From: Candidatus Hodarchaeota archaeon
Lineage (GTDB): Archaea; Asgardarchaeota; Heimdallarchaeia; Hodarchaeales; Hodarchaeaceae
Assembly: GCA_029856365.1 (NCBI GenBank)
Contig: JAHQWW010000096.1
Coordinates: 1 to 14,107 of the forward strand
Reading direction: 5' to 3'
Length of the DNA: 14,107 nucleotides
Made by a program: the position numbers and the translations under genes. Of the stretch, positions 1-14,107 are shown piece by piece. Under the pieces are notes generated by a model, which worked only from the letters and a program-made list of their open reading frames with translations, was not told where the DNA came from and searched no databases. Position 1 is the first letter of the stretch, and every line of letters begins with the position of its first letter.

Positions 1-3000
1 AGATCTGTATAAATCGAAGGATGGTCATCACCAATAACGAATAGTCCCCCACCGTTCTTCACAAAGGTTTGAATTGCTTTAATTTCGCTGGAATGGAAAG
101 CGAACCGTGCTTGGGGAATAATTAGAATATCATAACCTTCAAGTAGCGATAAGGTTAAGCTGGAGGTTGTCAAGTCTACTATATGTCCAGTAGTAATAAG
201 AGAGCTAGTCCATATACTGTAATTTAAAATTGAGTCTGTTCCATGACCTTGATCGATTAAAATGTGGAAATTTATGAAAACCACTACAGTGTTTATGGCA
301 AGATTGTTCTTCACATAAGTTTCTTCAATCACAGGTAAAGCATAAACAGTAATATTAAAATTTCCAAACTCAGTTGGGATCCAAATGTAGTTTAAAGTCT
401 CAATAGCTCCTGTTTGGAGAGAGGGATAAGTTTGGTTACTCACAAGGGTACCATCAATCCAAAGTTGTAATTCAACATGATTCTCAGTACTTATTCCCCT
501 ATTTTGGACCGTCGCATTAAGTATTACCATTTCATTTAATTGAAAAGCTTTTGGTGACTCTAAAGAGACTGCTAGATCATGATGTGGAGGTTGCCAAATT
601 ACCATATTTGTGTCCACCATATAAATTTCAGATCCATTCATATTATAATATAACAAAATACCTTTTCCCTTATGGTAATAGACGTAATCTCTGTATAGTC
701 CAATACTAATATTCCATGCTTCTAAGATGTAACCATACCAGTTATACCACACTGTTCCGACAACAGTTCCAGTCGTATCAAACCAATTAATGGTATCTCC
801 AACCCCAATATCGGTTTCAATTTGTCCAATATAATATGATCCCACCCAAATGCTTCCATCTTCAATTAATCTGGAGATAGTATTGACTGACAACCAATTA
901 CCAGCATTTATATCCACAAAAACATGAACCGAGTCAATATAATCAATGTACGTGAAATTGGTCCATGTCACCCCTTCAATTTCCAAGTCAATATAACTTC
1001 CCATATTGAAGTTTATGATGGGTTTCCCTACTGTTATTATCTCTATTATACGATTGTTTTTCACATATGTTTCATTGATTATGGGCACCGTGTAAGCTTT
1101 AACGTCATATATTCCTATTTCAGTGGGCATCCAGTAGTAGTTTAGCGTCTCAGTATTGCCTGATAAAAGAGAGGGATATATTTTGTTCATAACCAAAGTA
1201 TCATTAATCCAAAGTTGAAACTCCACATTGGTCTCGTTCTTCAAACCTCGATTAGATACTGTTGCGTTTAAAGTTACAGAATCGCCATAACAAATAATTG
1301 AAGGGACTTCAAGATAAGTGACTAGTTCATGGTCAGGTTTAACATAAGAAAACAGAATAGCCAAATCATTCGATGAACTAGTGAGTCCATAATAAATATT
1401 GTAATAATTTTGATTAAGGCCATAATTAAGACCTACAGTGGGATCCCCAATAGTTTCAATATAATCATATTGAAAAACAATCTCTCCAGTCTCATAGAGA
1501 ATTACTTGGAAGCTCCCTGCACGCCCTTCAGAGCCAAAATGATCTATTTTATGATATTCAATAATCAATCTATTCGGATTGGTGAGTGTTAAAGTAAAAA
1601 TGTTGTTAGAGGGGTTAAGATCATCCCAGAAGAGAGCAATAGCATAATAGTAATCAGAGCTGGCAGATGGAAACTCAGAATTTGCTTCAGATAGGGGTTC
1701 AGAGTTATTAAACGAAAGCCAACCGTTACTACTTACGTAAACGACTGAAAATGCTTGACCATACATATGGAACAGGAAAGGCAATTCTACAGCTTCAGAA
1801 TCATCATCATCGAGAGGGAGAATGGCTCCGCTTGTGGCATCAATCCAATTGTAAGTGATTCTATCATCCATTTTATAATTATAAATATCGGGTACTTGAA
1901 CTAATTTAGTTGCATTATTATTTAAAATGATGGATTCACTGGGTACTGGAACAACGTACACTGTAATATTGTAAAAGCCTGGGATAGTTGGTGTCCATTG
2001 ATGGATAAAGATCTCTTTGGTTCTTGTAAGAATTGAAGAAAAAAGATGACTCGCCACTAGTGTTTCATTAATCATTAATTGTAATAGGATCTCAGTTTCA
2101 TTTTCTAATCCCCGATTATAGAGTATTGTATATAACTCACCTGTCTCATCTGGTGGTTGAGTTTTCGGAGTCTTCAAATATACTGCTAAATCATGTTCAG
2201 GGAGTTGATCATTGGGTAAAGATAGAATATTAGCAAACATTATTTCATTATCTTGACGTGTAATGTATTGATCAAAATCATCAGCTAATATACATAATAA
2301 TCCAGAACCAACCTCAACAACTGCACCATAAATACCCTCACAAGTAGAGTCCCAAAAAATAGGTAGTGCTGGACAAGTAACCTCGAGGGCATTGTAATGA
2401 CTCGGAATGTAAATAGAAGTAATATTTTCCATTAATGGGTGGAATAAATCGATAAATGTCGTTGGGCCACTACTACCTATCGAGGAACCAGTGAAAGTTA
2501 TTCCGTAGTTAGCAGCAATCTGTGTTGGGCCATCTGGGGGAGGACTATCACCAATTGCCACAAGAACCCCCCCATTTTGCATATAATCTTCTATAGCGGT
2601 TATTTCACTGGCAGTCCAATCTTCTCCACCTTCTCCAACGAGTATTACTGGATAATTAAGTATTAAATCCGCTGTAATAGGTGAACTAATTTCTTTGACA
2701 AAATAATCCAATTCATTCATGTAAAAAGTCTTTAGACCTTGTAGGGGGCGTTCTCCATGGCTAGAGAGATATGCAATCATTTTAGATGTTGTAATTACTT
2801 CTTTATAAGCAAGATTATCAAGAGTACTATTTTCATCTTCAATAGGTGGTATAAATGCAGTTACATTATACACTCCTTCCTCAATTGGTTTCCAATCATA
2901 AGAGAATGAAACACTTGTCCAATTTACTATTTTTGCAAAAGTAACATCGTGCGCAATAGAATCGTTTATCCACAATTCTACATTCACATTTGTCTCATTT

Positions 3001-4643
3001 TCCCGACCACCATTAAATACTGATACATTAACCAATGTTGAAGTTCCTGGAAACATCCCTGAAGGAGCTTCTAAGAAAATTTTTAGGTTATGCGATGGAG
3101 GAGGTTGTACTGCTTTGTAAGCATTCAAAAGGCCATATCCATAATACTGATCCCATCCAGGTACTCCTAAATCATCAGTTCTATCCCTTAGATGTGATCG
3201 AACTTGTTCTGCTGTCCAATTTGGAAATTCAGATCGAATTAATGCTAATACACCTGATACATGCGGACATGCCATTGATGTACCACTCTTATTACCATAG
3301 CTCCCCGAGAGAATTGTTGAATAAATATTAACACCAGGTGCAGCGATCTCTATGGTATCCCCAAAGTTACTAAAGGAAGCTAAATTATCAATAATATCGG
3401 TTGCGCTAACGGATATAACTTCAGGATAAGCAGAGGGGTAGAAAGGTCTCGAACTTGCATCATTACCAGCTGCAGCTACTGTAATAACATCATTCGCAGC
3501 AGCATAAGCAAGAGCATCTTTTAAGACATTTGATGGGCTATTTCCACCCCAACTATTTGAAAGAATATCAGCTCCTGCGTCAACAGCATGAATTATAGCT
3601 TTAGCAGCATCATAATCATTTCCAATTCCAAAGACATTAAGAAATTTTTCAGCCATAATTTGTACATTAGCTGTTCCAGCAATACCTAAGCTATTATTGA
3701 TTGTTGCTGCTATTATTCCTGCGCAATGTGTTCCATGAGAATGGTCATCCTTTGGGTCATTATCGTAATTCACCCAATCATAGCCTAGATCTACATATTG
3801 AGCACTAAGATCAGGGTGAGTATAGTCAATCCCAGTATCAATTACTGCAACAAGAACTGATGACGGATCCCCTTTTTGAATATCCCATGCAAAATCAGTT
3901 TTAATTCGTTGGGGGCCCCATTGTACGGACCAATTTGGATCATTTGGAGTTGAATCAATTGAATAAATCAAGCTTGGTTCTATATACCGAATTTCTTTTA
4001 AAGAAGCCGATAATTCAATGAAATCTCTTAATGAAGAGATAGGAATGCTCATTACCATAACATTTAGTTTTTCAATGACTTTTTCGATTTTATAATTAGT
4101 TTGAAACAAGTCATATTGAGTATTTTCATTAATATTCAGTGAGTGATTAAACCCGACAATGACCTTGATATTTTCATCGCTTATCTTTATTTTTGAATCA
4201 GCGGACGATTCAAAATAGGGAGTATCCTTGAAATTGGTTCCAATTCCACAATTTTGATAGATTTCATCCCATGTTGAGATGACTAGATCGTCTGATGCTT
4301 CATGAAAGGAGCTCCAATTTACCTTATTTTCCCCAGAAATACTTTCACTTCTATATCCTTCAAATTTATGTTCATTTATGCTATTAAAAATAGATTTATT
4401 ACTAGTTAATGAGGGGTCATTACTGTCATAATATCCTTCTTCAGTATGATTTAACTCAAATATTTCCTTGTTGATATATTGATCATTTACTAATGAATCG
4501 ATAGCTACAACTGCTGAGTCCAAATAATCATCAGGACTCAAAGTGGGTTCTTTAAATAAGGATACTACCAAAATAAGAGTTAACGTTGTTAGGACTAAAT
4601 ATTTTCTAATTAAATAAAAGGAATTGTTAAAATGGTACACCAA
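1..4643 (-). CDS. Large secreted multidomain S8 (subtilisin/thermitase-like) serine protease, 3'-partial (>1540 aa)
   Basis: Manual minus-strand translation gives one open frame from TTG 4643 (or GTG 4640; GGAG 9 nt upstream of the TTG) to the window edge with no stop, which probably explains its absence from the ORF track. It has a signal/anchor (RKYLVLTTLTLILVVSLF), an I9-like propeptide (KVIVGF...IRYIEPS) and a mature start like thermitase (TPNDPNWSVQWGPQRI..AWD). Catalytic motifs: VAVIDTGID (Asp 3837-3839), HGTHCAG (His 3735-3737), oxyanion AAAGN, GTSMACPHV (Ser 3276-3278). CARDB-like, GIFT-like and NIDO-like modules follow. Confidence 0.95.
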   Translation of the reverse strand, partial: MVYHFNNSFYLIRKYLVLTTLTLILVVSLFKEPTLSPDDYLDSAVVAIDSLVNDQYINKEIFELNHTEEGYYDSNDPSLTSNKSIFNSINEHKFEGYRSESISGENKVNWSSFHEASDDLVISTWDEIYQNCGIGTNFKDTPYFESSADSKIKISDENIKVIVGFNHSLNINENTQYDLFQTNYKIEKVIEKLNVMVMSIPISSLRDFIELSASLKEIRYIEPSLIYSIDSTPNDPNWSVQWGPQRIKTDFAWDIQKGDPSSVLVAVIDTGIDYTHPDLSAQYVDLGYDWVNYDNDPKDDHSHGTHCAGIIAATINNSLGIAGTANVQIMAEKFLNVFGIGNDYDAAKAIIHAVDAGADILSNSWGGNSPSNVLKDALAYAAANDVITVAAAGNDASSRPFYPSAYPEVISVSATDIIDNLASFSNFGDTIEIAAPGVNIYSTILSGSYGNKSGTSMACPHVSGVLALIRSEFPNWTAEQVRSHLRDRTDDLGVPGWDQYYGYGLLNAYKAVQPPPSHNLKIFLEAPSGMFPGTSTLVNVSVFNGGRENETNVNVELWINDSIAHDVTFAKIVNWTSVSFSYDWKPIEEGVYNVTAFIPPIEDENSTLDNLAYKEVITTSKMIAYLSSHGERPLQGLKTFYMNELDYFVKEISSPITADLILNYPVILVGEGGEDWTASEITAIEDYMQNGGVLVAIGDSPPPDGPTQIAANYGITFTGSSIGSSGPTTFIDLFHPLMENITSIYIPSHYNALEVTCPALPIFWDSTCEGIYGAVVEVGSGLLCILADDFDQYITRQDNEIMFANILSLPNDQLPEHDLAVYLKTPKTQPPDETGELYTILYNRGLENETEILLQLMINETLVASHLFSSILTRTKEIFIHQWTPTIPGFYNITVYVVPVPSESIILNNNATKLVQVPDIYNYKMDDRITYNWIDATSGAILPLDDDDSEAVELPFLFHMYGQAFSVVYVSSNGWLSFNNSEPLSEANSEFPSASSDYYYAIALFWDDLNPSNNIFTLTLTNPNRLIIEYHKIDHFGSEGRAGSFQVILYETGEIVFQYDYIETIGDPTVGLNYGLNQNYYNIYYGLTSSSNDLAILFSYVKPDHELVTYLEVPSIICYGDSVTLNATVSNRGLKNETNVEFQLWINDTLVMNKIYPSLLSGNTETLNYYWMPTEIGIYDVKAYTVPIINETYVKNNRIIEIITVGKPIINFNMGSYIDLEIEGVTWTNFTYIDYIDSVHVFVDINAGNWLSVNTISRLIEDGSIWVGSYYIGQIETDIGVGDTINWFDTTGTVVGTVWYNWYGYILEAWNISIGLYRDYVYYHKGKGILLYYNMNGSEIYMVDTNMVIWQPPHHDLAVSLESPKAFQLNEMVILNATVQNRGISTENHVELQLWIDGTLVSNQTYPSLQTGAIETLNYIWIPTEFGNFNITVYALPVIEETYVKNNLAINTVVVFINFHILIDQGHGTDSILNYSIWTSSLITTGHIVDLTTSSLTLSLLEGYDILIIPQARFAFHSSEIKAIQTFVKNGGGLFVIGDDHPSIYTD
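277..3092 (-). repeat. Four dispersed ~100-aa CARDB/Ig-like repeats within the S8 protease (~3092-2790, ~2195-1890, ~1331-1027, ~581-277)
   Basis: Shared approximate consensus H-[NDE]-L-x(3)-L-[EK]-x-P ... N-[RG]-G-x(2)-[NT]-E ... L-[WM]-I-[ND] ... W-x-P-x(3)-G-x-[YF]-[ND]-[IV] ... P ... E ... N. Repeats 3 and 4 are the most alike: NATVSNRG..QLWINDTLV..YPSL..ETLNY..ETYVKNN vs NATVQNRG..QLWIDGTLV..YPSL..ETLNY..ETYVKNN. Confidence 0.85.
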
Positions 4644-4874
4644 CCCTGTTTTCTCCGCCAACCAAGCTCTAACGGTTGTGTATTGTGCATTTATTAATTT
4701 TAATAATTTAAATAGCTCGATAATTATGAATATTTTGAATATTGTTTCCAAATTGATTCAACTAGAATTCGAAGGAAGTTTTTCTAAATCAAATTTTGAT
4801 CACTTAGCTTAATAATGAAGGTAATAGTTTTTCTTGATTAAGAGTTTTTACATGTATAAAATTTGAATGATCTC

Positions 4875-5132
4875 ATGATTGGTCTCAAACGCGGAATAGT
4901 GACGCTTTCTCTCATCCACAGTAAAATAGTAACAAGTTCATTCATACCACTGAAGACAATAATTGGTCAATATCTTCTAGATATCCAACATATTGGTAGT
5001 ACAGCTATCACTGATATGATAGCAAAACCAATTATTGATATTGTTGTGGCTATACATAATTTTAGAGGCTTTTATTTGTATAGAATCTATCAAAAGGCTA
5101 ATGTGCGAAAAAGGAGTAATCAGTTCAAGTAA
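4875..5132 (+). pseudogene. Truncated, frameshifted GrpB/UPF0157-family nucleotidyltransferase-fold gene remnant
   Basis: MIGLKRGIV and IQHIGSTAI..MIAKPIIDIVV match the GrpB N-terminal signature (HIGSTS.PG..AKPIIDI). The usual 'Y.P.W...F..E' helix is shortened or absent. After HNF (~5064) the plausible continuation EAFICIESIKRL lies in the +1 frame (5065-5100). The C-terminal half of a typical GrpB protein is missing. Confidence 0.8.
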
Positions 5133-5185
5133 ATAGGGCCAAGGGTAATAGAAAAGTAAAAATGCTTTAGATTAACTCTGGGAGG

Positions 5186-8100
5186 CTATGATATTAGTTT
5201 TTTCTGCTCTTCTTGTGTAAGTTCAATCAAGAGGTTCCAATTAATCGTTTTTTCTAAAAATTCAATTGCTTCGCTTCGTTTATATTTTCTCTCTAGATGG
5301 GAAATAATTTGTTCTGAAAATAAGTAACAGAGACCATTTTTTTGAAGATGAATTTCTTTAATTAATGATAACATTTTTTTATCTTTTCTCGACAATTTGA
5401 TGTTTTTTAAGGTTAATATCCCCTCATTTAGGGCAAACGCGGAAAAGTAATGCAACGAAATATGTTTTCGAACCATTTTCCTAATAATAGAGGAAGGAAA
5501 CTGTTCTGTTGTGAATATATCCTTTAATTGATCTTTGAAAGTTTCCTCCAATTCATGCCCTAATGCTGTCAATCGTTCTTTGAAATATTCTGGGAGTTGT
5601 GCTTCAGAAATGATAATTATACTGGAATATTTACCATTCCAAATTAACATATAAAAACCTTCACGGCTTATAGTTTCGATACTTTTCTTTGATGTACCTT
5701 CTTCACCTCTGGTTTGCATATTCCCAGCTACATCCCCAATGAAGCTAGATATTGCTGTAGACATTCCTGATAATGCATCTGGGTCAGTTTGAAATTCTGA
5801 TAAAGTTTTCTCCACATAAAATTGCAATCCTGACTCATGTCGGGCGAGAATCAATCGAATCGATTTTATATCCTCAAAACTTTGTTCTACTGCCGTGTCA
5901 TGCTTTTGGATAAGAGTTTTACGCGTTTCCCTTTTCCTTTGGATAAATTGAATTGAAGCTCCTATAGCTAAACCCCCAAATAGAAGAACAGCAACAACCA
6001 TTAGTACAAATCCTATAATTTGAAAGATATCTATAGCTGGAGAGAGTATTCTAATTGTTTCTAACTCAGATGAGGGTATAGAATAACTAGATTGCAAGCT
6101 TGACAATCCTGCCCCTGATTGAATTGTTACGTTCGTGAAACCTAATGCTGCTTTTGTATTGTGTCCATCAATTATAAACACCGCTTTTCCTGATTCATCC
6201 GTTTGTGTTATGTGGTTTAAGATCTTTATCGTGCCATTCTTGTACTCAATTCCGATAGAGAACGAGATATTTATCCCTGCAAGAGGGGTTTGTTGATTTA
6301 CTCCTGCTCCAAATCCCTGTTGATAATCTGTTTGATATCTAAGTGTTACAATAAATTTCACATCCTCTCCCTCTTGAATATTTTTCCCAGGTTCAATATC
6401 AACTGATATTTCTATTGGAATACCTTTCAATGTAATATTTAGCTGAATCTCTTGTGCTTGATATCCAAAGGCAGAAATTTGAATACTCATATTATATGAT
6501 CCAAATTTCCAACCTACCGTGTGAAAAATGATTTTAAAAGGTGTTTGCTCTATCTCCATTGTATAGGTGCTGGATGGCACAGAAGAACTATTCAGCCATA
6601 ATTCTATTGTATCAAGGTGTGTGATCTCAATTCCATGGTAAGTATGATAGGTATCAATAGTGATCTCAAGATCTTCTTCAATTTGAATTATACCGTTATT
6701 CGTCATGTGAACTTCTGCTAATGAGACATTTGCTGTTGGCATTTCAATAACGTCAAAAATTAGTATAGTGCTACTGGACTCAAATTCAGAATGAGAAAAT
6801 GTGATGCTGACTGCCTGAAATCCAAGCTGAAGATTAGAAGAGTCAAATCTGAACCAATAGTAATTATTTGTAGAATTAATGAACGTTACTATTGATGTAG
6901 CATTTACATTGGGAGACCCACCAGTAATAAGCTCATTATAATCTGTATTGTTTAATAATAAGAAGAATTCGCTGGAATCAGTAAAAAAGATATTTTCTGG
7001 GGTGTCCAGGTTAGAAACGATTGATGTTGATGCTTTCAGAATTTCTAACTGAAAAACAAAATAACTAGAAGTATAATATTGTTGATCAAATTCAATACAA
7101 ATATTATATACTCCTGATTGTTCTGGATCGAAAATATAACTCCACGAAAAATTAGATTCTTGGTGTGGATCATTCAATAGGGGAACTGGCGAATCAATAA
7201 AGGGTTCACTTGTGTTGAGTAGCTCACCATTGATAACATGGTAAATTTGAACATTTAAAGTAAAGCTATCGCTAGATCCTTGGGATAACTTTGTGGAATA
7301 TCTTCCACTATTATTTTGAATTGGGGTCGTTCCAATGTTCGCTGTAAGATTTGTGTGAGCAGAAATTATGGTTAAATTGAAGTACCACTTTCGAGTATGG
7401 AAACCAACTTTATTTGCTTTAATGACAACGTCTGTATAATTTCCTGTCCCTGGAAATTGAGTAGAGTTTAGCTGAATGAAATAAACATCGGTTGATTTTG
7501 TAATGTTCACACCTGCCACCGTAATAGTAGCCCCATCTATGCCTGTTCCACCAGTTATATTGTACTCAACTCTAAGAGTGGTATCATCACACCATTCCAA
7601 TACCACACTGGTAGCATTGACAATCAATGATGAGTTTTTAACAAAGTTGACATTAATGACTTTTGTCCAATTAACAAACCAAGCCACATGAGTGGTTATG
7701 GTGACAGTGCCTGTTGTACCTGGTATTTGATCTTTAGTTGTAAAAGAGGCATTATAAGAGTGGTCTGTGGGAATTTGGTTCATTTTTACATCAGTAGCAG
7801 TCGTCCAATTAGCATCACACCAGATCAGAGCATTTCTTACATCTGTATCATTATGAATGGATTTGTAAACCGCGGTGATATTTAAAAAATTGTCAACGAT
7901 CACCTCGGTGTCAAATTGGATATTAAATGAAGTATTTACTAATAAATCTATAGTACGAGTGAATGTTCCAACTTTAACCTTATCTAGGCTAATCCAGAAT
8001 ACTTGTAGATCATATGTACCATTAATATTCCTTGTTTGATCCAATGTGTCGTTTATATCCCACGAATCTGATACTAGTGTATTATTATAACTGATATTCA

Positions 8101-9772
8101 GTTTCGAGACTACCTCTGCACCCGTGGATTTATACTCGATCCAATACGAAGCATTACCGAAGGGTTCTCCGACTTGATAATTGAGATCGATTATGTCAGT
8201 AACATTTGCTCTAAAGGGTAATGAGATTGGTGTGCTGTAATGTTCCAAAATGAAGCTAGAAATATAATTTGTCGCATTAAACAGAACGTGCCAAGTGACA
8301 TTCCCGATTAATTCACTGGCATTAATTACCAATGTTGTTTTACCAAAGGTATATTTGTGTGATGGATTACCATCCCAAGTCACATTGGCGTTATTAGTTA
8401 ACTCAGAATACTCTGGGGATTTAGAATCATTCCAGTAGATTTTTGAAGCATTCCAATCAGCTTGGATGCCATTAATAACTATATGACGATTTCGAATCGT
8501 ATCTGTAGTATTGACTTTTATTGTAGAAAAAGTTAGATTCCAAAATGCAATTGAACCATTCTGGACTTGATACCTAGTAGAAGCAGTAAGTGGATTATAA
8601 GAGTATGAATAATTGACTTGGCTTTTTATGGCGAAAGACACTGAAGTATTAGTAGAGAAATCATGTGAATCCGTATTGTTTGCCTTGAAAGAGAAGGAAT
8701 CGAGTTTATAATCTATATTATAAGTCATTGAAACTTCTTTAGGATTTGAATAGATCAGATTGTCCCAATTTGCATCAGTGGGAAGCACTCTAATCGCTGA
8801 AAGGATGTCAGTCGCTCCAAGAAAAGGGTCAACTGACCAGTTACCGTCATGTGCTGATTTTACAACCCAGACACCAGCATCACCATTAGTTAAGTCATCT
8901 TGGCAATACCATTCCCAGTACCCTTTCGTTTTGTCTCCAGTATCATTAAGAACCAACCAATAAAAGCCTTTAGTGACATTGATTGGTTTTGGAAAAGAAT
9001 ATGTAGCCCATGCAGGATCCCACACTGGTCCTGTATCCAAAAAACCAAACTCCTCTTCTAATAATGTTGTACTGAGTTGGTTCCCTGGTTTTCCAGAGTT
9101 ATCGCTAAAAATTGATACATTTCCATGAGGGATTTCGCCATCAATAGCTACATCGATATACTTGAGAAGAACCTCAACACTAGTAATATTAGCATAATCA
9201 TCTTTAACTTCAAATTTTTGCCCAACTTCGAGAAAACTAATCGATATTAGGGCATCTGAATCAGATGTTTCATTCTCTATTAAGCGCCAGTCCTCTTCTG
9301 CAGTGATATTCTGGATAACCATATCCAAGGAATTTCTCGAGAAATTCGTTAAGTTACTAAAAGTAAGAGTTGTATTATGCCGACTAGGATTGCCTTTCAC
9401 CTCACCAATTGAGGCATCTATTGTGTCGACAGAACTTGAATTGATCTTGATTAGTGAATCATAAACTTGATAAATTCCCTCTCCGTTCCCTACTTGGTTA
9501 CCAATTATAAAAGTAGGGGATTTCAAAGTCTTAGGACTATCAGAAGCATTATTTTCTGATAAAGATAAGGAAAAATCAGTTAATTTTTCCTTTAATCTAT
9601 TTATTGATACCAACCTAATTTCCTCAGAATCAATTGAGGAATCCCCAAATTGGCTGAAATCTTGAATAAATAGAAATGGCCCAATAGATAGTAAGATGCT
9701 ACTTAATAAAAAAAAAATAGTAATATGGCTGTGAAACTGGGTTAAGTTTTTGTACTGTGCAAGGGGATTCAT
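5186..9772 (-). CDS. 1528-aa receptor-like single-pass membrane glycoprotein with cytoplasmic longin/roadblock-like domain and putative C-terminal winged helix
   Basis: N-terminal hydrophobic segment (ITIFFLLSSILLSIGPFLFI), then a ~1200-aa beta-rich ectodomain with >50 N-x-S/T sequons by manual count. TM helix IFQIIGFVLMVVAVLLFGGLAIGASIQFI (~5942-6028) is followed by basic RKRETRK. The tail has no sequons and shows a longin-like pattern (IRLILARHESGLQFY...DPDALSGMSTAISSF...IETISREGFYMLIWNGKYSSIIII...LGHELEETF). GGGGA lies upstream of the ATG. Confidence 0.9.
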   Translation of the reverse strand: MNPLAQYKNLTQFHSHITIFFLLSSILLSIGPFLFIQDFSQFGDSSIDSEEIRLVSINRLKEKLTDFSLSLSENNASDSPKTLKSPTFIIGNQVGNGEGIYQVYDSLIKINSSSVDTIDASIGEVKGNPSRHNTTLTFSNLTNFSRNSLDMVIQNITAEEDWRLIENETSDSDALISISFLEVGQKFEVKDDYANITSVEVLLKYIDVAIDGEIPHGNVSIFSDNSGKPGNQLSTTLLEEEFGFLDTGPVWDPAWATYSFPKPINVTKGFYWLVLNDTGDKTKGYWEWYCQDDLTNGDAGVWVVKSAHDGNWSVDPFLGATDILSAIRVLPTDANWDNLIYSNPKEVSMTYNIDYKLDSFSFKANNTDSHDFSTNTSVSFAIKSQVNYSYSYNPLTASTRYQVQNGSIAFWNLTFSTIKVNTTDTIRNRHIVINGIQADWNASKIYWNDSKSPEYSELTNNANVTWDGNPSHKYTFGKTTLVINASELIGNVTWHVLFNATNYISSFILEHYSTPISLPFRANVTDIIDLNYQVGEPFGNASYWIEYKSTGAEVVSKLNISYNNTLVSDSWDINDTLDQTRNINGTYDLQVFWISLDKVKVGTFTRTIDLLVNTSFNIQFDTEVIVDNFLNITAVYKSIHNDTDVRNALIWCDANWTTATDVKMNQIPTDHSYNASFTTKDQIPGTTGTVTITTHVAWFVNWTKVINVNFVKNSSLIVNATSVVLEWCDDTTLRVEYNITGGTGIDGATITVAGVNITKSTDVYFIQLNSTQFPGTGNYTDVVIKANKVGFHTRKWYFNLTIISAHTNLTANIGTTPIQNNSGRYSTKLSQGSSDSFTLNVQIYHVINGELLNTSEPFIDSPVPLLNDPHQESNFSWSYIFDPEQSGVYNICIEFDQQYYTSSYFVFQLEILKASTSIVSNLDTPENIFFTDSSEFFLLLNNTDYNELITGGSPNVNATSIVTFINSTNNYYWFRFDSSNLQLGFQAVSITFSHSEFESSSTILIFDVIEMPTANVSLAEVHMTNNGIIQIEEDLEITIDTYHTYHGIEITHLDTIELWLNSSSVPSSTYTMEIEQTPFKIIFHTVGWKFGSYNMSIQISAFGYQAQEIQLNITLKGIPIEISVDIEPGKNIQEGEDVKFIVTLRYQTDYQQGFGAGVNQQTPLAGINISFSIGIEYKNGTIKILNHITQTDESGKAVFIIDGHNTKAALGFTNVTIQSGAGLSSLQSSYSIPSSELETIRILSPAIDIFQIIGFVLMVVAVLLFGGLAIGASIQFIQRKRETRKTLIQKHDTAVEQSFEDIKSIRLILARHESGLQFYVEKTLSEFQTDPDALSGMSTAISSFIGDVAGNMQTRGEEGTSKKSIETISREGFYMLIWNGKYSSIIIISEAQLPEYFKERLTALGHELEETFKDQLKDIFTTEQFPSSIIRKMVRKHISLHYFSAFALNEGILTLKNIKLSRKDKKMLSLIKEIHLQKNGLCYLFSEQIISHLERKYKRSEAIEFLEKTINWNLLIELTQEEQKKLIS
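9708..9717 (-). repeat. T10 homopolymer (A10 on + strand) in the signal-peptide coding region of the 1528-aa gene
   Basis: The + strand reads ...cttaat-AAAAAAAAAA-tag... and encodes T-I-F-F-L on the minus strand. Confidence 0.9.
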
Positions 9773-9956
9773 TATTTCATCCCACTTTGAGTCCAGACAT
9801 ATTACTAAGGGGAAAGGAATGGTGACAATGTTCCAAGCTAGATCAACGACTAGATTGAGAATAGTATATCACAGTGGTATATAATCAATTCTATAGAAAG
9901 TACAGAAGTGATTATATTCTTAATGAATAACACTGGAATTCCTTCTCTAAGCACAG

Positions 9957-11237
9957 TTAATTATTTTGTTTACGCTTATTACTCGAATTACAACGACCAT
10001 ATGAAAAAACCATTACTACATCATGCGAATGGCATTCATTAGCATTATTATTTGTTACTCTGAAAACGATTGCTTCACATTGGAATGAGTCGATTTGGGA
10101 GACTTCACTGATAAAAGATTTGATGTTACTAGCAATTACTCCTAAGGTGACTTTATCTGAGCCATCACATTTCTTAGAGGAGCAAATTTCTATGTTTTTA
10201 ATTTCTATAAGGAAAACAAAGCCATTTGATGCCTCTTTGAATTTAAGCCAATCAATTCTTTTGTTTAAACCACGTTTTTCACATGCTTTATGGAAAGGTT
10301 TTTCACTAGATTTATATTCAATACCTGATTTCTTGATAGTATATTTTTCAATTTTTAATGTTACAACGTATTTTACCTTTCCTTTACCATGACTTTCGAA
10401 TACATGCGTATAATACTCGGGTTCAGGCTCGGGCTCGGGTTCAGGTTCGGGTTCAGGTTCGGGCTCGGGTTCAGGCTCGGGCTCTGAATTCATAGTGAGA
10501 ATTCTGATCTCAGAAAGTAAATCACCTGGGGGAAATGGATTAAGTACCCAACTGCTATCATGAGATGATTTTGCTGCCCAGTCACCAGTATCTCCATTGG
10601 TTTGATCATCTTGTGTGTACCATTCCCAAAAACCAGCCGCTTGATTCCCAGTATCACTTAATACTATCCAGTAAAATCCTTGAACTACGTTTATTGGGTC
10701 CAAAAATGTGAAAGTAATCCATGTTGGCCCAATCGATACACCTAAATCAAGGGATGCAAATCCTTCTTCCAAGGTGGTCGTACCAAGTGGAGTGCCTGGT
10801 TCCCCATCAATGTCATTAAAGATAGAAACGGTTCCTTGAGGATATTCTCCGTCCTTGAAAAGATCAATATATTGTATATAGAGTTTAATTTGAGTAATAT
10901 TAGCGTTTTCTTCTACTATTTCGAATTTTTGAGCTGCTTCAATATAAGTTGCAGAGACCCTTGTGTCACTATCCTCAGTTTCATTTTCAATTATCAACCA
11001 ATAATCATAAGCACCACTGTTAATATCTGCTGTTTCAGAAGTCTCGTCAGCTATTTCAACAGATAATTGAGAAAGATCGGTTTCGTAAACATTGTTTGGA
11101 AAAGTATTGTTATCGTCTGTTTTATCGATTATTTGATTAGAAAGTAAATTTTCATGATTCACAGTTGAACTACCGAAAATGAAGAATGCTATGATTAATA
11201 GACTCATTTTATGTTGACTTATAATTGTCCTTATCAT
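9957..11237 (-). CDS. 426-aa exported protein: beta-sandwich domain paralogous to the receptor N-terminal domain, (EP)n linker, basic Cys-containing C-terminal domain
   Basis: Signal-like segment (KMSLLIIAFFIFGSS). The domain AQKFE..ANITQIKL...VSIFND..GEPG..L...W.TFTF..PINV..GFYWIVL..WEWY resembles choice-of-anchor-R-type extracellular domains and aligns gap-free to 8822-9292. There is no C-terminal TM helix. Confidence 0.88.
   Translation of the reverse strand: MIRTIISQHKMSLLIIAFFIFGSSTVNHENLLSNQIIDKTDDNNTFPNNVYETDLSQLSVEIADETSETADINSGAYDYWLIIENETEDSDTRVSATYIEAAQKFEIVEENANITQIKLYIQYIDLFKDGEYPQGTVSIFNDIDGEPGTPLGTTTLEEGFASLDLGVSIGPTWITFTFLDPINVVQGFYWIVLSDTGNQAAGFWEWYTQDDQTNGDTGDWAAKSSHDSSWVLNPFPPGDLLSEIRILTMNSEPEPEPEPEPEPEPEPEPEPEPEYYTHVFESHGKGKVKYVVTLKIEKYTIKKSGIEYKSSEKPFHKACEKRGLNKRIDWLKFKEASNGFVFLIEIKNIEICSSKKCDGSDKVTLGVIASNIKSFISEVSQIDSFQCEAIVFRVTNNNANECHSHDVVMVFSYGRCNSSNKRKQNN
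10416..10484 (-). repeat. Coding hexanucleotide tandem repeat (GAR-CCY)n encoding (Glu-Pro)11-Glu linker
   Basis: The + strand reads ctcgggttcaggctcgggctcgggttcagg... (69 nt) with synonymous variation among units. It is GC-rich relative to its surroundings. Confidence 0.95.
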
Positions 11238-11844
11238 AACAAGTTACAGATGATCCAATGTAGTATATTAACTAAACTAGACAGTTTTTCCGAATTTCGG
11301 GGATTGCCTAACTCTTTTTATAATTTACTAGATAATTCTTACACAAATTCGAGAATAATCTTTGCTATGACAAGATCTAGATAGGTGTGTGTTGGAACAT
11401 ACATATATTTAGCCATGGTTTTTATGCAGTTTTACCTCCCTAGTATCAAGTTACTTATAATTCTCAGGAAATCCTTACGTTTCGATTTTGTTAAATTTTT
11501 CCTTTTTTTATCGGAAGTGTACCCAAATCCATGATCACCATAACGCTTTTAGCATTAAGGGTATTTTTTCCAATTCTTTTTTCTTTATTAGGACTCATTA
11601 GAAGATCTCAACCACTTGTTTCTTTTTCACTTGCCAAAAAAAGAAATTATTCTTATTAATGGTTAGATCCTTTACTAGTACTGATCATAGGTCGAGAATA
11701 AGTGTAATTTAAGGGAATTCTTACTATAGAAGCCATAAACTTTTGCATTTAGTTTACAAATAAGTCAAAAAATTGAACAAAACCAAGTAGTAAAATTTAA
11801 ACAGTCCATAGGGAAATTAAGTATTAATTTTCTTCTCTTTATTT

Positions 11845-11851
11845 GAGGTGA
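11845..11851 (+). promoter_or_regulatory. Shine-Dalgarno-like ribosome binding site of mscL
   Basis: GAGGTGA ends 4 nt before the ATG at 11856. Confidence 0.75.
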
Positions 11852-11855
11852 AAAA

Positions 11856-12182
11856 ATGACGACTGAAGCTGAAGAAAAACCAAAAAAGCTTTTACAAGAG
11901 TTTAAAGAATTTCTCAAGAATTATAAAGTTTTGGGATTAGCGGTGGCTTTCATTATGGGCATCTATTTAGGAGCACTCGTTCAAGCACTTGTTAATGATC
12001 TCATCATGCCCATTTTCGAACTCATTCCAGGAACGGATGTCCCATGGAACCAGATAACTTTTTCAATTAGTAATGCTGACTTTCTAATAGGCCATTTTGT
12101 TGGAGAATTGATCACGTTCATCATAATAGCGTTTGTTATATTTCTTATCGTAAAACTTGCTTCAAAATACGATATTGATTAA
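11856..12182 (+). CDS. mscL: Large-conductance mechanosensitive channel MscL
   Basis: N-terminal amphipathic LLQEFKEFL, TM1 VLGLAVAFIMGIYLGALVQALVNDLIMP and TM2 IGHFVGELITFIIIAFVIFLIVK all match MscL signatures. Confidence 0.95.
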   Translation: MTTEAEEKPKKLLQEFKEFLKNYKVLGLAVAFIMGIYLGALVQALVNDLIMPIFELIPGTDVPWNQITFSISNADFLIGHFVGELITFIIIAFVIFLIVKLASKYDID

Positions 12183-12393
12183 TTACTTGCGATTTTACTG
12201 TATTCAACTGGTGTACACGCTTTTCCCAAAATAAATTAAAGATCTAATAATCTAGCCTTCTACATAATAATAAGTCTAAAGATTTTTCTCTCCTAATTTT
12301 AGGATATTAAGTTCTAGGAAGTCTAATGGCGGATAATTAGGATTTTTAATAATTGTTCAATCAATAGAGAAGTGAATATTGATAATCCAGCTT

Positions 12394-12954
12394 CTACGAT
12401 CCTGATAACTGCAGATATTGTGGACGTGGGTGAATTTTTGCTATTATATTAAGAATGTTTGAAGCTAATGTGTGGAAGATCTCTATAATTTCCTGGCCAC
12501 CCCAAAGAGCAGAGGTTTCGTAATACAAACTATCAAACTTTTTTGCCATTAATTGGGCTTCTTCGGAGGAAATAACTTGATCTTTGATCAAATCATTTTT
12601 GTTACCAACTAACACCACAATTGAATGTGGGTTTACTTTGCTTCTATATTCCCTTATCCAGTGTGGTACTGCGTTGAATGACTTTCTGTCATTCAGAGCA
12701 AATACTACTAAACATCCCAAGGACCCTGTATAATAACTTGAACGTATTTTACCAAAAACTTCCTGCCCAGCTGTATCAGCCAATAGAAGTTTGATATGTT
12801 TACCATTTACGATTACTCGTTTTATTGTGTAATCAACACCAATAGTGGGTAAATAATTTGTTGAAAATTTCCAATCAGCAAATCTACGGATAAGGGAGGT
12901 TTTGCCAACATAGAATGAGCCAATTGAGCAAATTTTTAACACTAATTCATTCAT
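12394..12954 (-). CDS. Rab-like small GTPase (Ras superfamily), ~186 aa
   Basis: G1 GSFYVGKT, G2/RabF1-like YLPTIGVDY, G3 DTAGQE, RabF4-like YYTGS, G4 NKND, G5 ETSAL. The likely start is ATG 12954 (GGGGA upstream) rather than the track's TTG 13089. There is no C-terminal cysteine motif. Confidence 0.93.
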   Translation of the reverse strand: MNELVLKICSIGSFYVGKTSLIRRFADWKFSTNYLPTIGVDYTIKRVIVNGKHIKLLLADTAGQEVFGKIRSSYYTGSLGCLVVFALNDRKSFNAVPHWIREYRSKVNPHSIVVLVGNKNDLIKDQVISSEEAQLMAKKFDSLYYETSALWGGQEIIEIFHTLASNILNIIAKIHPRPQYLQLSGS

Positions 12955-13220
12955 TGCCAAGTAATTATCCCCGAACAATTTTAATAAAAATTCCTTCTTA
13001 ATTAATATTTTGGTATTTTTTAGAAAATATGGCAAGTCCTCCTCACAAGAGAAATAGAGGCCAATCCTAGGACTGTTAAGAGGCGACAAAACTTTTTAAA
13101 TATTAATTCGCTAAGATTAATGCGGTATTTTTACTGATAACCGATTAAGATTTATTCTCAAAAACTTAAAGCTTTTACAGGAACATATGGGATATAAAAT
13201 TTATCCATAAGGTGATCCAT

Positions 13221-13286: not shown

Positions 13287-13514
13287 TTACTGATAAACTT
13301 CGGGTGCAATACTTATTAGGAAAAAAGGTACAAATGAAAATACTGCAAGATTCTTTCTAAGAACAGGTCTTGATGTAAGTGTTCCAGTTAAGGAAGACAA
13401 TAGTTCTTGAATCTTTTTCTTCCAAAAAAGTATTCGTGCTAATCCAGCCTCTTTCGACAGTGTAAATCTAGAATATTCAGAAGTTGACTGGGGGTAAAAA
13501 GAGTTATTGATCAT
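13287..13514 (-). CDS. Hypothetical 75-aa protein (doubtful)
   Basis: The ATG start overlaps the MFS 3' end by 11 nt, which could indicate translational coupling. It has a hydrophobic C-terminal stretch (LAVFSFVPFFLISIA) but no recognisable motif. Confidence 0.3.
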   Translation of the reverse strand: MINNSFYPQSTSEYSRFTLSKEAGLARILFWKKKIQELLSSLTGTLTSRPVLRKNLAVFSFVPFFLISIAPEVYQ

Positions 13515-14107
13515 TTTTTACTTTATAGGCACCTGAATCTTTCATTAAAAGACTTACAATTGCTGCTATTCCAAAGACACCTGCAAACAGAATCATATCT
13601 GGCATAATTAGGAATATTATCCCTCCTAACTGGCCAAACATCATTAACACACCATTGGAGCTTTCTTCTGGTACAGGATGGGTTATTTCAGCTGCATAAG
13701 TTAGTCCAACAGGTAATGCTGGTACTAATATGAAACCAAAGATAAAAGCTAGTATTAATGTTAATACAAAATCTCCAGCACCAGTAATCCCCAGTAGTAG
13801 TGCTAAAGGTGTACTTACTATTAAAGCAACATTCAAAAAGATTTTTCGTTTGCCTAATTTATCTGATAATGAAGAAAGGATAACTGCGCCAAATATTCCG
13901 CCCAATATGATCAGTCCTCCAATCATCCCAGTATTAGGAGAAAATCGGCTGAAGATATCATCTATAGCACTCAATAAAGCGTTGAATATTCCTAAACCAG
14001 CAAAAAGTAAGAAGATGAGTAAATTGAAATCTCTATTCTCAAATAAATTCTTGATTCCTTTAGTATGGAACATTTTTTCACGAAAATATGGATTGGGTGG
14101 TTGTGAG
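13504..14107 (-). CDS. MFS transporter, SLC49/FLVCR-like, 5'-partial (C-terminal half only)
   Basis: The frame stays open upstream of the track's ATG 14073 to the window edge (SQPPNPYFREK-MFH...). It contains about 6 TM helices, MFS motif A-like SSLSDKLGKRK, and LPVGLTYAAEITHPVPEESSNGVL, which resembles the FLVCR/SLC49 'E.TYP..E..S.G.L' motif. Confidence 0.88.
   Translation of the reverse strand, partial: SQPPNPYFREKMFHTKGIKNLFENRDFNLLIFLLFAGLGIFNALLSAIDDIFSRFSPNTGMIGGLIILGGIFGAVILSSLSDKLGKRKIFLNVALIVSTPLALLLGITGAGDFVLTLILAFIFGFILVPALPVGLTYAAEITHPVPEESSNGVLMMFGQLGGIIFLIMPDMILFAGVFGIAAIVSLLMKDSGAYKVKNDQ

Follow-up and report, generated by a model that had tools for sequence, protein, structure and literature searches.

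Eukaryotes use longin domains to dock and switch Rab, Arf and Rag GTPases, and one question in eukaryogenesis is how longin modules first came to be linked to membranes. Asgard archaea encode many soluble longin and roadblock proteins as well as fusions of these domains to GTPases, TRAPPC3 and two-component domains, and in Lokiarchaeon MK-D1 the genes of small GTPases are generally not found in operons with longin or roadblock regulators (Tran et al, 2024, PMC10933270; Liu et al, 2020, bioRxiv 10.1101/2020.10.19.343400). In bacteria, the neighbourhood of Group 1 Rup contains a Ras-like GTPase and a membrane protein with an uncharacterised domain beside a transmembrane (TM) helix and an OmpA domain (Wuichet & Sogaard-Andersen, 2014, PMC4316618). 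In a literature survey of incomplete coverage, which leaves novelty unproven, no report was found of an Asgard surface protein that carries a longin domain behind its TM helix. The locus analysed here, which we call the window, is an entire 14.1-kb contig (C120) of a Hodarchaeaceae genome bin of 4.24 Mb that is 84% complete. It carries the gene of a large putative surface protein with a predicted cytoplasmic longin tail (P0001), the gene of its exported paralog (P0002) and a Rab-like small GTPase gene (P0003). In the original prediction, made from the sequence of the window, these three genes were read as a signalling system in which P0001 couples an extracellular event to P0003. In the following, G000 is the window's own genome, G001–G021 are genomes of the genus, C-numbers are contigs, L-numbers are extracted loci, and all plain coordinates are positions in the window.

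The P0001 open reading frame (ORF; 5186–9772, minus strand) encodes 1528 amino acids (aa), laid out as an N-terminal signal or anchor, a lectin-like head, a stalk, a TM helix and a longin tail. The protein has an N-terminal hydrophobic segment at residues 17–37 and one TM helix at residues 1249–1277 (5942–6028, minus strand), where the Kyte-Doolittle window reaches its maximum of 2.92 and which is followed by the basic stop-transfer sequence QRKRETRK. The 58 N-x-S/T sequons are all located N-terminal to residue 1215, and the 251-aa tail contains none, which is consistent with an ectodomain outside and a tail inside the cell. P0001 therefore has the appearance of a type I single-pass surface protein with a cytoplasmic tail, and its ectodomain is presumably glycosylated. 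A Pfam search with full-length P0001 gave no meaningful match. The stalk of about 900 residues between the head and the TM helix is probably Ig-like, as hinted by a weak lead to archaeal Big_3_5/MG4 repeat proteins in the Atlas feature search (score 0.85–0.86).

The tail was modelled with AlphaFold2 (AF2) on an alignment of 45 family members. The model (predicted local distance difference test, pLDDT, 81.7; predicted template modelling score, pTM, 0.74) starts with a juxtamembrane helix, continues in the longin order and ends in a small alpha/beta domain. DSSP assigned strands to tail residues 28–35 and 40–45, a helix to 54–79, strands to 88–93, 96–102 and 106–112 and a helix to 119–134, that is, a beta-beta-alpha-beta-beta-beta-alpha order. 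The longin of Sec22b was the top Foldseek match (E = 2.7e-4, TMt 0.68). A Foldseek-independent search with VIA, whose matches cover tail residues 27–168, returned synbindin (Z 12.7), sedlin (Z 12.4), Sec22 (Z 12.4), VAMP7 (Z 11.1), adaptor small and medium subunits (Z 9.3–10.9), SRX (Z 9.9), the Lokiarchaeota longin 8yqg (Z 9.6) and an MK-D1 roadblock (Z 7.9). Roadblocks scored below longins (Z 8.2–8.8 for MglB and MglC), a juxtamembrane helix precedes the sheet and there was no Robl_LC7 Pfam match. At the level of sequence, Pfam returned no family for the tail at E ≤ 10 except a chance match to Calmodulin_bind and none among the 45 aligned members, and the tail profile found no match among the sequences of the PDB. 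By structure, the tail is predicted to have a longin fold, with the longin domain at residues 1305–1411 of P0001 (tail residues 28–134; 5540–5860, minus strand) and the juxtamembrane helix before it. The small C-terminal alpha/beta domain (tail residues ~150–250; P0001 ~1427–1527; 5192–5494, minus strand) was modelled with pLDDT 80–94 and is kept across the family. It gave one VIA row over tail residues 163–251 (Z 8.6) and one Atlas row (TM score 0.51) with HTH_47 in half of its members; its pattern and the Atlas lead hint at a winged-helix-like domain.

The distribution of this tail was determined by an exhaustive sequence search, which found 75 cluster representatives among 1.84 billion proteins. 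The match was always C-terminal, in proteins of up to 3305 aa, and the Atlas clusters matching almost the whole tail (TM score 0.66–0.74) are Asgard hypothetical proteins. The tail profile detected five genes in the window's genome, on contigs C120, C7, C5 (an ORF of 6872 aa), C23 and C45. Members of the family were present in 19 of the 21 genomes of the genus with one to eight genes per genome; 51 of 61 relatives had them, as did 103 of the 200 genomes sampled from the Asgard phylum (E ≤ 1e-8). Proteins that carry this tail module at their C-terminus form a family spread across the Asgard archaea; they are large surface proteins that cross the membrane once and vary in their ectodomains. Furthermore, paralogs within the genus share 58–63% identity in the tail as against 30–41% in the ectodomains (the latter over partial lengths), as expected if all the paralogs share one cytoplasmic partner while their outside parts diversify. 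Docking of such a conserved partner is the most likely role of the tail. The stronger conservation of the tail also fits a generic anchor, and a tail working independently of any GTPase was weighed, in which it would be a dimerisation, sorting or anchoring module that links the large surface proteins with one another or connects them to the cytoskeleton or the membrane-remodelling machinery, like the longins of SNAREs and of adaptor sigma and mu subunits. The scores given above suit such a role, the SNARE longins and the adaptor subunits matching the tail as well as the GTPase-platform longins do.

The ectodomain of P0001 shares its head with the product of the neighbouring gene P0002 (9957–11237, minus strand; 426 aa), which sits 184 bp upstream on the same strand. 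Residues 155–330 of P0001 (8783–9310, minus strand) and 73–247 of P0002 (10497–11021, minus strand) are 52% identical over 176 columns (E = 9e-59). The AF2 model of the shared head, built on 23 orthologous sequences, is an all-beta jelly roll (pLDDT 82.7, pTM 0.82). Its closest fold match by VIA was the lectin-like domain of Cwp84 (Z 15.0, 153 residues aligned, root-mean-square deviation 2.7), and further matches were phage baseplate and tail-tip proteins (Z 12.5–13.6), PHR domains and several carbohydrate-binding modules (CBMs; Z 7–8.5). Pfam returned nothing meaningful for this region. The head is accordingly modelled as a lectin-like or CBM-type beta-sandwich jelly roll. P0002 has a short N-terminal hydrophobic segment resembling a signal and no further hydrophobic stretch, hence no TM helix. 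Its head is followed by a (PE)n linker (10416–10493, minus strand), whose low-complexity PE repeats are the sole Pfam match of the protein, and by a Cys-containing C-terminal domain (9960–10415, minus strand) that found no Pfam match and no usable match in the Atlas feature search and is 26–78% identical among orthologs. The length of the Pro-Glu linker varies between genomes; it is far longer, (TPEPEP)n, in the genome of an 88% identical ortholog (L035:8199–9881), where gene callers split the gene in two. The architecture noticed in the original prediction was therefore borne out: two tandem co-oriented genes share an ectodomain, which at 176 aa is somewhat longer than the ~157 aa claimed; the paralog has a signal-like N-terminus and no C-terminal TM helix; and the topology of P0001 and the modelled fold of its tail agree with a type I membrane protein carrying a cytoplasmic longin-like domain.

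The association of the two genes is conserved. The tandem of a P0002-like gene and, directly downstream of it, a P0001-like gene is found in G001, G003, G005, G007, G011, G016, G018, G019, G021 and GCA_048883125, the last being the genome of the 88% identical ortholog. Nucleotide synteny with the two nearest relatives ends 14 bp past the stop codon of P0001 and 127 bp upstream of the start of P0002, and both flanks differ; the corresponding blastn block with L035 and L036 (82–86% identity) delimits a two-gene cassette at 5172–11364. The heads of P0001 and P0002 form separate orthologous sets (48–53% vs 58–75% identity to P0001), so the duplication is older than these species. These observations bear on the simpler explanation that P0001 and P0002 are mere tandem duplicates of a surface adhesin, functionally uncoupled, with P0002 a truncated copy being lost. 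Such duplication is common among surface-protein genes and the C-terminal domain of P0002 has no detectable relatives beyond its orthologs, but both genes are intact and adjacent in about ten genomes, the two heads belong to separate orthologous sets, and P0002 has kept a C-terminal domain of its own, which together make this explanation improbable. In a second, paralogous cassette (L054:1-4140 and L055:2-5980), the giant upstream gene encodes a protein with a TM helix of its own and a cytoplasmic tail of another kind, ~155 aa long and winged-helix-like in appearance; surface proteins like these would then have a second type of conserved tail. A recurrence there of an exported protein next to an anchored partner was considered and dropped on account of these features of the upstream giants.

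P0003 (12394–12954, minus strand) encodes a Rab-like small GTPase (Pfam Ras, 5.9e-44) of 186 aa from the ATG at 12954; an alternative TTG start lies at 13089. The G1–G5 motifs GxxxxGKT, DTAGQE, NKND and ETSA are seen in its alignment, and its nearest solved relatives are Sec4, Rab1 and Rab23 (E = 1e-32 to 1e-31). The protein ends in QLSGS with no Cys near the C-terminus, hence has no prenylation motif, as the original prediction had stated. Its P-loop reads GSFYVGKTS, with bulky Phe and Tyr at the positions of Ras G12 and G13, where other GTPases in the same alignment have GDGGVGKTS; the Phe/Tyr P-loop is common to its orthologs and a paralog clade (L062:9874-10452, L063:1690-2277, L058:402-932) and might alter intrinsic or GTPase-activating protein (GAP)-assisted hydrolysis.

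The possibility that the longin tail binds P0003 and recruits or regulates it, with P0002 acting as ligand, co-receptor or decoy, was the core of the original prediction. It draws on the longin fold of the tail, on the position of the GTPase gene on the same strand about 1.2 kb from the pair, which was confirmed (1157 bp from the stop codon of P0003 to the start of P0002), and on a related tail clade with dedicated adjacent GTPases described below. The gene in between, mscL (11856–12182; Pfam MscL, 1.1e-19), a neighbour outside the cassette, is however on the plus strand, opposite to P0001, P0002 and P0003. The GTPase gene and mscL are convergent and mscL and P0002 divergent, so P0003 cannot share a transcript with the P0001-P0002 pair and is a separate transcription unit. 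The synteny block leaves the GTPase out. True P0003 orthologs (81–83% identity) were found in G009 and G014 only; the hits in all other genomes are at most 57% identical and represent orthologs of another paralog. G009, a closed genome of 4.94 Mb, has its P0003 ortholog at 4.497 Mb and its P0001-like gene at 2.567 Mb, ~1.9 Mb apart, and none of the eight tail-bearing genes is near the P0003 ortholog; that of G014 is likewise not near a cassette. The mscL ortholog of G009 (87%) is at 4.49 Mb, away from any cassette. In the corresponding locus (L062; G009:C1:4487000-4506999) the mscL and P0003 orthologs are 8 kb apart in another relative orientation, which indicates that the arrangement in the window is a local rearrangement.

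Ras-family genes also occur near other orthologous cassettes. In G005 one lies on the same strand 2.4 kb upstream, in G001 and G016 the gene is divergent and 1.2 kb upstream, G019 has one 150 bp downstream, and in GCA_048883125 the distance is 6.8 kb. When these cassette-neighbouring GTPases were placed in a tree together with all the G000 paralogs, they fell into five different Ras clades, each beside a G000 paralog located elsewhere, and P0003 grouped with the paralogs on C171 and C18 of G000, outside the 10-row clade of receptor-linked GTPases. The window's genome has 54–59 Ras-family genes, and a Ras-family gene is present within 500 bp of 2.5% of its ORFs, within 1.2 kb of 4%, within 2.7 kb of 7–8% and within 4 kb of 10–16%, so that 4–8% of ORFs have one as close as P0003 is to the pair; this agrees with the caution in the original prediction that proximity may be chance given the abundance of small GTPases in Asgard genomes. 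Co-folding of the tail with P0003 scored 0.00 in both runs, which is no answer and carries no weight for or against binding. On the genomic evidence P0003 is judged a chance neighbour brought in by rearrangement and not a conserved partner, and a coupling of P0001 to P0003 is very unlikely. Lack of conserved linkage to this GTPase was among the outcomes that the original prediction itself had counted against it, and the linkage proved not to be conserved. Thus, the observations of the original prediction were confirmed and its interpretation was supported in part, the three-part system proposed for this window being the part that was not.

Other genes of the genus did lend support to the wider notion of a TM-longin receptor paired with a Rab-like GTPase. 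The tail tree resolved two fully supported clades with a long branch between them: clade B with the window gene and 30 others, and clade A with nine rows, whose proteins are ~1611–1627 aa (including G000:C45), 2180–2192 aa or 715 aa long. In six of the nine clade A loci a Ras gene lies within 500 bp on the same strand, as compared with 2.5% expected, and sometimes there are two in tandem; the related genomes are not independent samples and no P value is given for this linkage. The ten GTPases linked to clade A form a single clade (Shimodaira–Hasegawa-like approximate likelihood ratio test, SH-aLRT, 98) that includes no other paralog of the window's genome. The representative in the window's genome, at G000:C45:11817-17405 (L064:5818-11406), is a 1624-aa single-pass surface protein with a clade A tail, and a 188-aa Rab-like GTPase is encoded 148 bp downstream on the same strand; the arrangement recurs in G001, G007, G009 and G011. 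The C45 pair is the best matched receptor-GTPase pair for experiments. The receptor-GTPase idea has thus genomic support in the genus, but for the clade A genes. In clade B, by comparison, ~18 other loci with flanks of at least 6 kb have no Ras gene, which favours the GTPase-independent tail introduced above; the tight linkage of the sister clade to its own GTPase clade speaks against it, and there is no positive evidence for a non-GTPase partner of any kind. We regard that role as possible, and nearly as likely as its closest competitor, a small GTPase encoded elsewhere. The latter is the leading candidate for the partner of the tail because of the longin fold and the sister clade A, and it is put forward tentatively.

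Taken as a whole, the explanation that we hold to be somewhat better than even is that two genes of Hodarchaeaceae make up the real unit, a cell-surface cassette to which the neighbouring GTPase gene does not belong. P0002 would be a secreted protein made of the lectin-like head, the Pro-Glu linker and the Cys-containing domain. In P0001, a head of the same kind would sit on a long stalk with heavy N-glycosylation; the protein would cross the membrane once and place the 251-aa module of longin and small domain inside the cell, which could make it a surface binding protein, receptor or adhesin whose tail is a membrane-tethered longin platform. We infer that P0002 cooperates extracellularly with P0001, through contact between the two heads or by acting on a common ligand, and that the tail docks one conserved cytoplasmic partner shared by all the paralogs while their ectodomains diversify. 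A stronger version, in which the clade B tails recruit or regulate one shared small GTPase encoded elsewhere, so that binding by the head, modulated by P0002, would be relayed across the membrane to a Rab-like switch, is rather unlikely; if true, small GTPases would serve outside-in signalling in the archaea that are the nearest lineage to eukaryotes.

Several points weigh against the cassette explanation. Four of the ~8 informative P0001-type loci have a Ras gene within 4 kb, against an expectation of 10–16%; the excess is mild and could mean a loose paralog-independent link, chance, or the residence of both kinds of genes in variable regions, and it was treated as chance. The tail matches no Pfam longin family by sequence, and its membership comes from structure. 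The longin and jelly-roll folds are themselves predictions and the reading is computational throughout. P0001 may retain its N-terminal hydrophobic segment as an uncleaved anchor, in which case the segment would not be a signal peptide. The branch between clades A and B is very long, and conclusions on function may not transfer between them.

The remaining genes of the window frame the cassette. On the minus strand, the order from the contig end is a cut-off major facilitator superfamily (MFS) gene, a 75-aa ORF, P0003, P0002, P0001 and a giant S8 subtilase gene that leaves the contig; the plus strand carries mscL between the GTPase gene and P0002, and a GrpB fragment. The subtilase-bearing surface protein (3-4751, minus strand) is longer than 1583 aa, with an S8 subtilase domain (2.4e-60), 32 sequons, four CARDB repeats and two GATase-like/ABC_transp_aux (IFT52 GIFT-like) domains. 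An 89-aa ORF on the plus strand (4863-5132) matches only positions 15-55 of the 159-position GrpB profile; it lies where the rearranged cassette ends and probably represents what is left of a gene. The MFS transporter ORF (13287-14106, minus strand) covers the first half of its profile (3-164 of 347) with the overlapping 75-aa ORF next to it, and the gene may be frameshifted or truncated. The MFS gene was tried as a conserved upstream flank of the cassette and rejected, since the one beside the G011 cassette is not orthologous to the fragment in the window.

With P0003 removed as a false lead, the window cassette offers a defined, conserved system in which to look for the binding partner of a tail that has no GTPase gene next to it, and clade A with its own GTPase clade provides matched pairs for experiment. 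In a wider sense, Asgard archaea including Hodarchaeales carry a widespread family in which a predicted longin is fused directly behind the TM helix of large, presumably glycosylated surface proteins, which bears on the question raised at the outset.

The head has its jelly-roll fold in common with Cwp84, the surface-layer protease of Clostridioides difficile, with receptor-binding modules of phage baseplates and tail tips and with CBM6-type modules, from which it differs in sequence (9–15% identity), ligand binding by the head being putative. The clade A receptors, typified by G000:C45, resemble P0001 in overall build: their tails are homologous to that of P0001 (profile E = 5e-19) and they have the same layout of signal, large ectodomain, TM helix and tail, but they have dedicated adjacent GTPases, which clade B including P0001 does not. 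The Group 1 Rup system is a structure-based lead, as an Atlas cluster of bacterial OmpA-domain proteins aligns weakly to the P0001 tail (TM score 0.48 over 148 residues); its membrane protein, however, has the order domain, TM helix, OmpA, which is opposite to that of P0001, and P0001 is without a conserved GTPase partner. With the eukaryotic longins, namely TRAPP synbindin (TRAPPC4) and sedlin (TRAPPC2), the SNAREs Sec22b, VAMP7 and Ykt6, SRX and the AP sigma and mu subunits, the tail would share the fold and strand order over ~120–140 residues, without a match at the sequence level. The longin of P0001 sits behind a TM helix in the C-terminal part of a giant putative glycoprotein and has an extra small domain after it, unlike the longin SNAREs, which are tail-anchored with the longin at the N-terminus. 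The soluble Asgard longin and roadblock proteins (PDB 8yqg and 9jue) belong to the same structural superfamily and phylum as the P0001 tail, but those described either reside in the cytosol or form fusions with a GTPase, TRAPPC3 or two-component domain, whereas the predicted longin of P0001 is fused to a surface protein.

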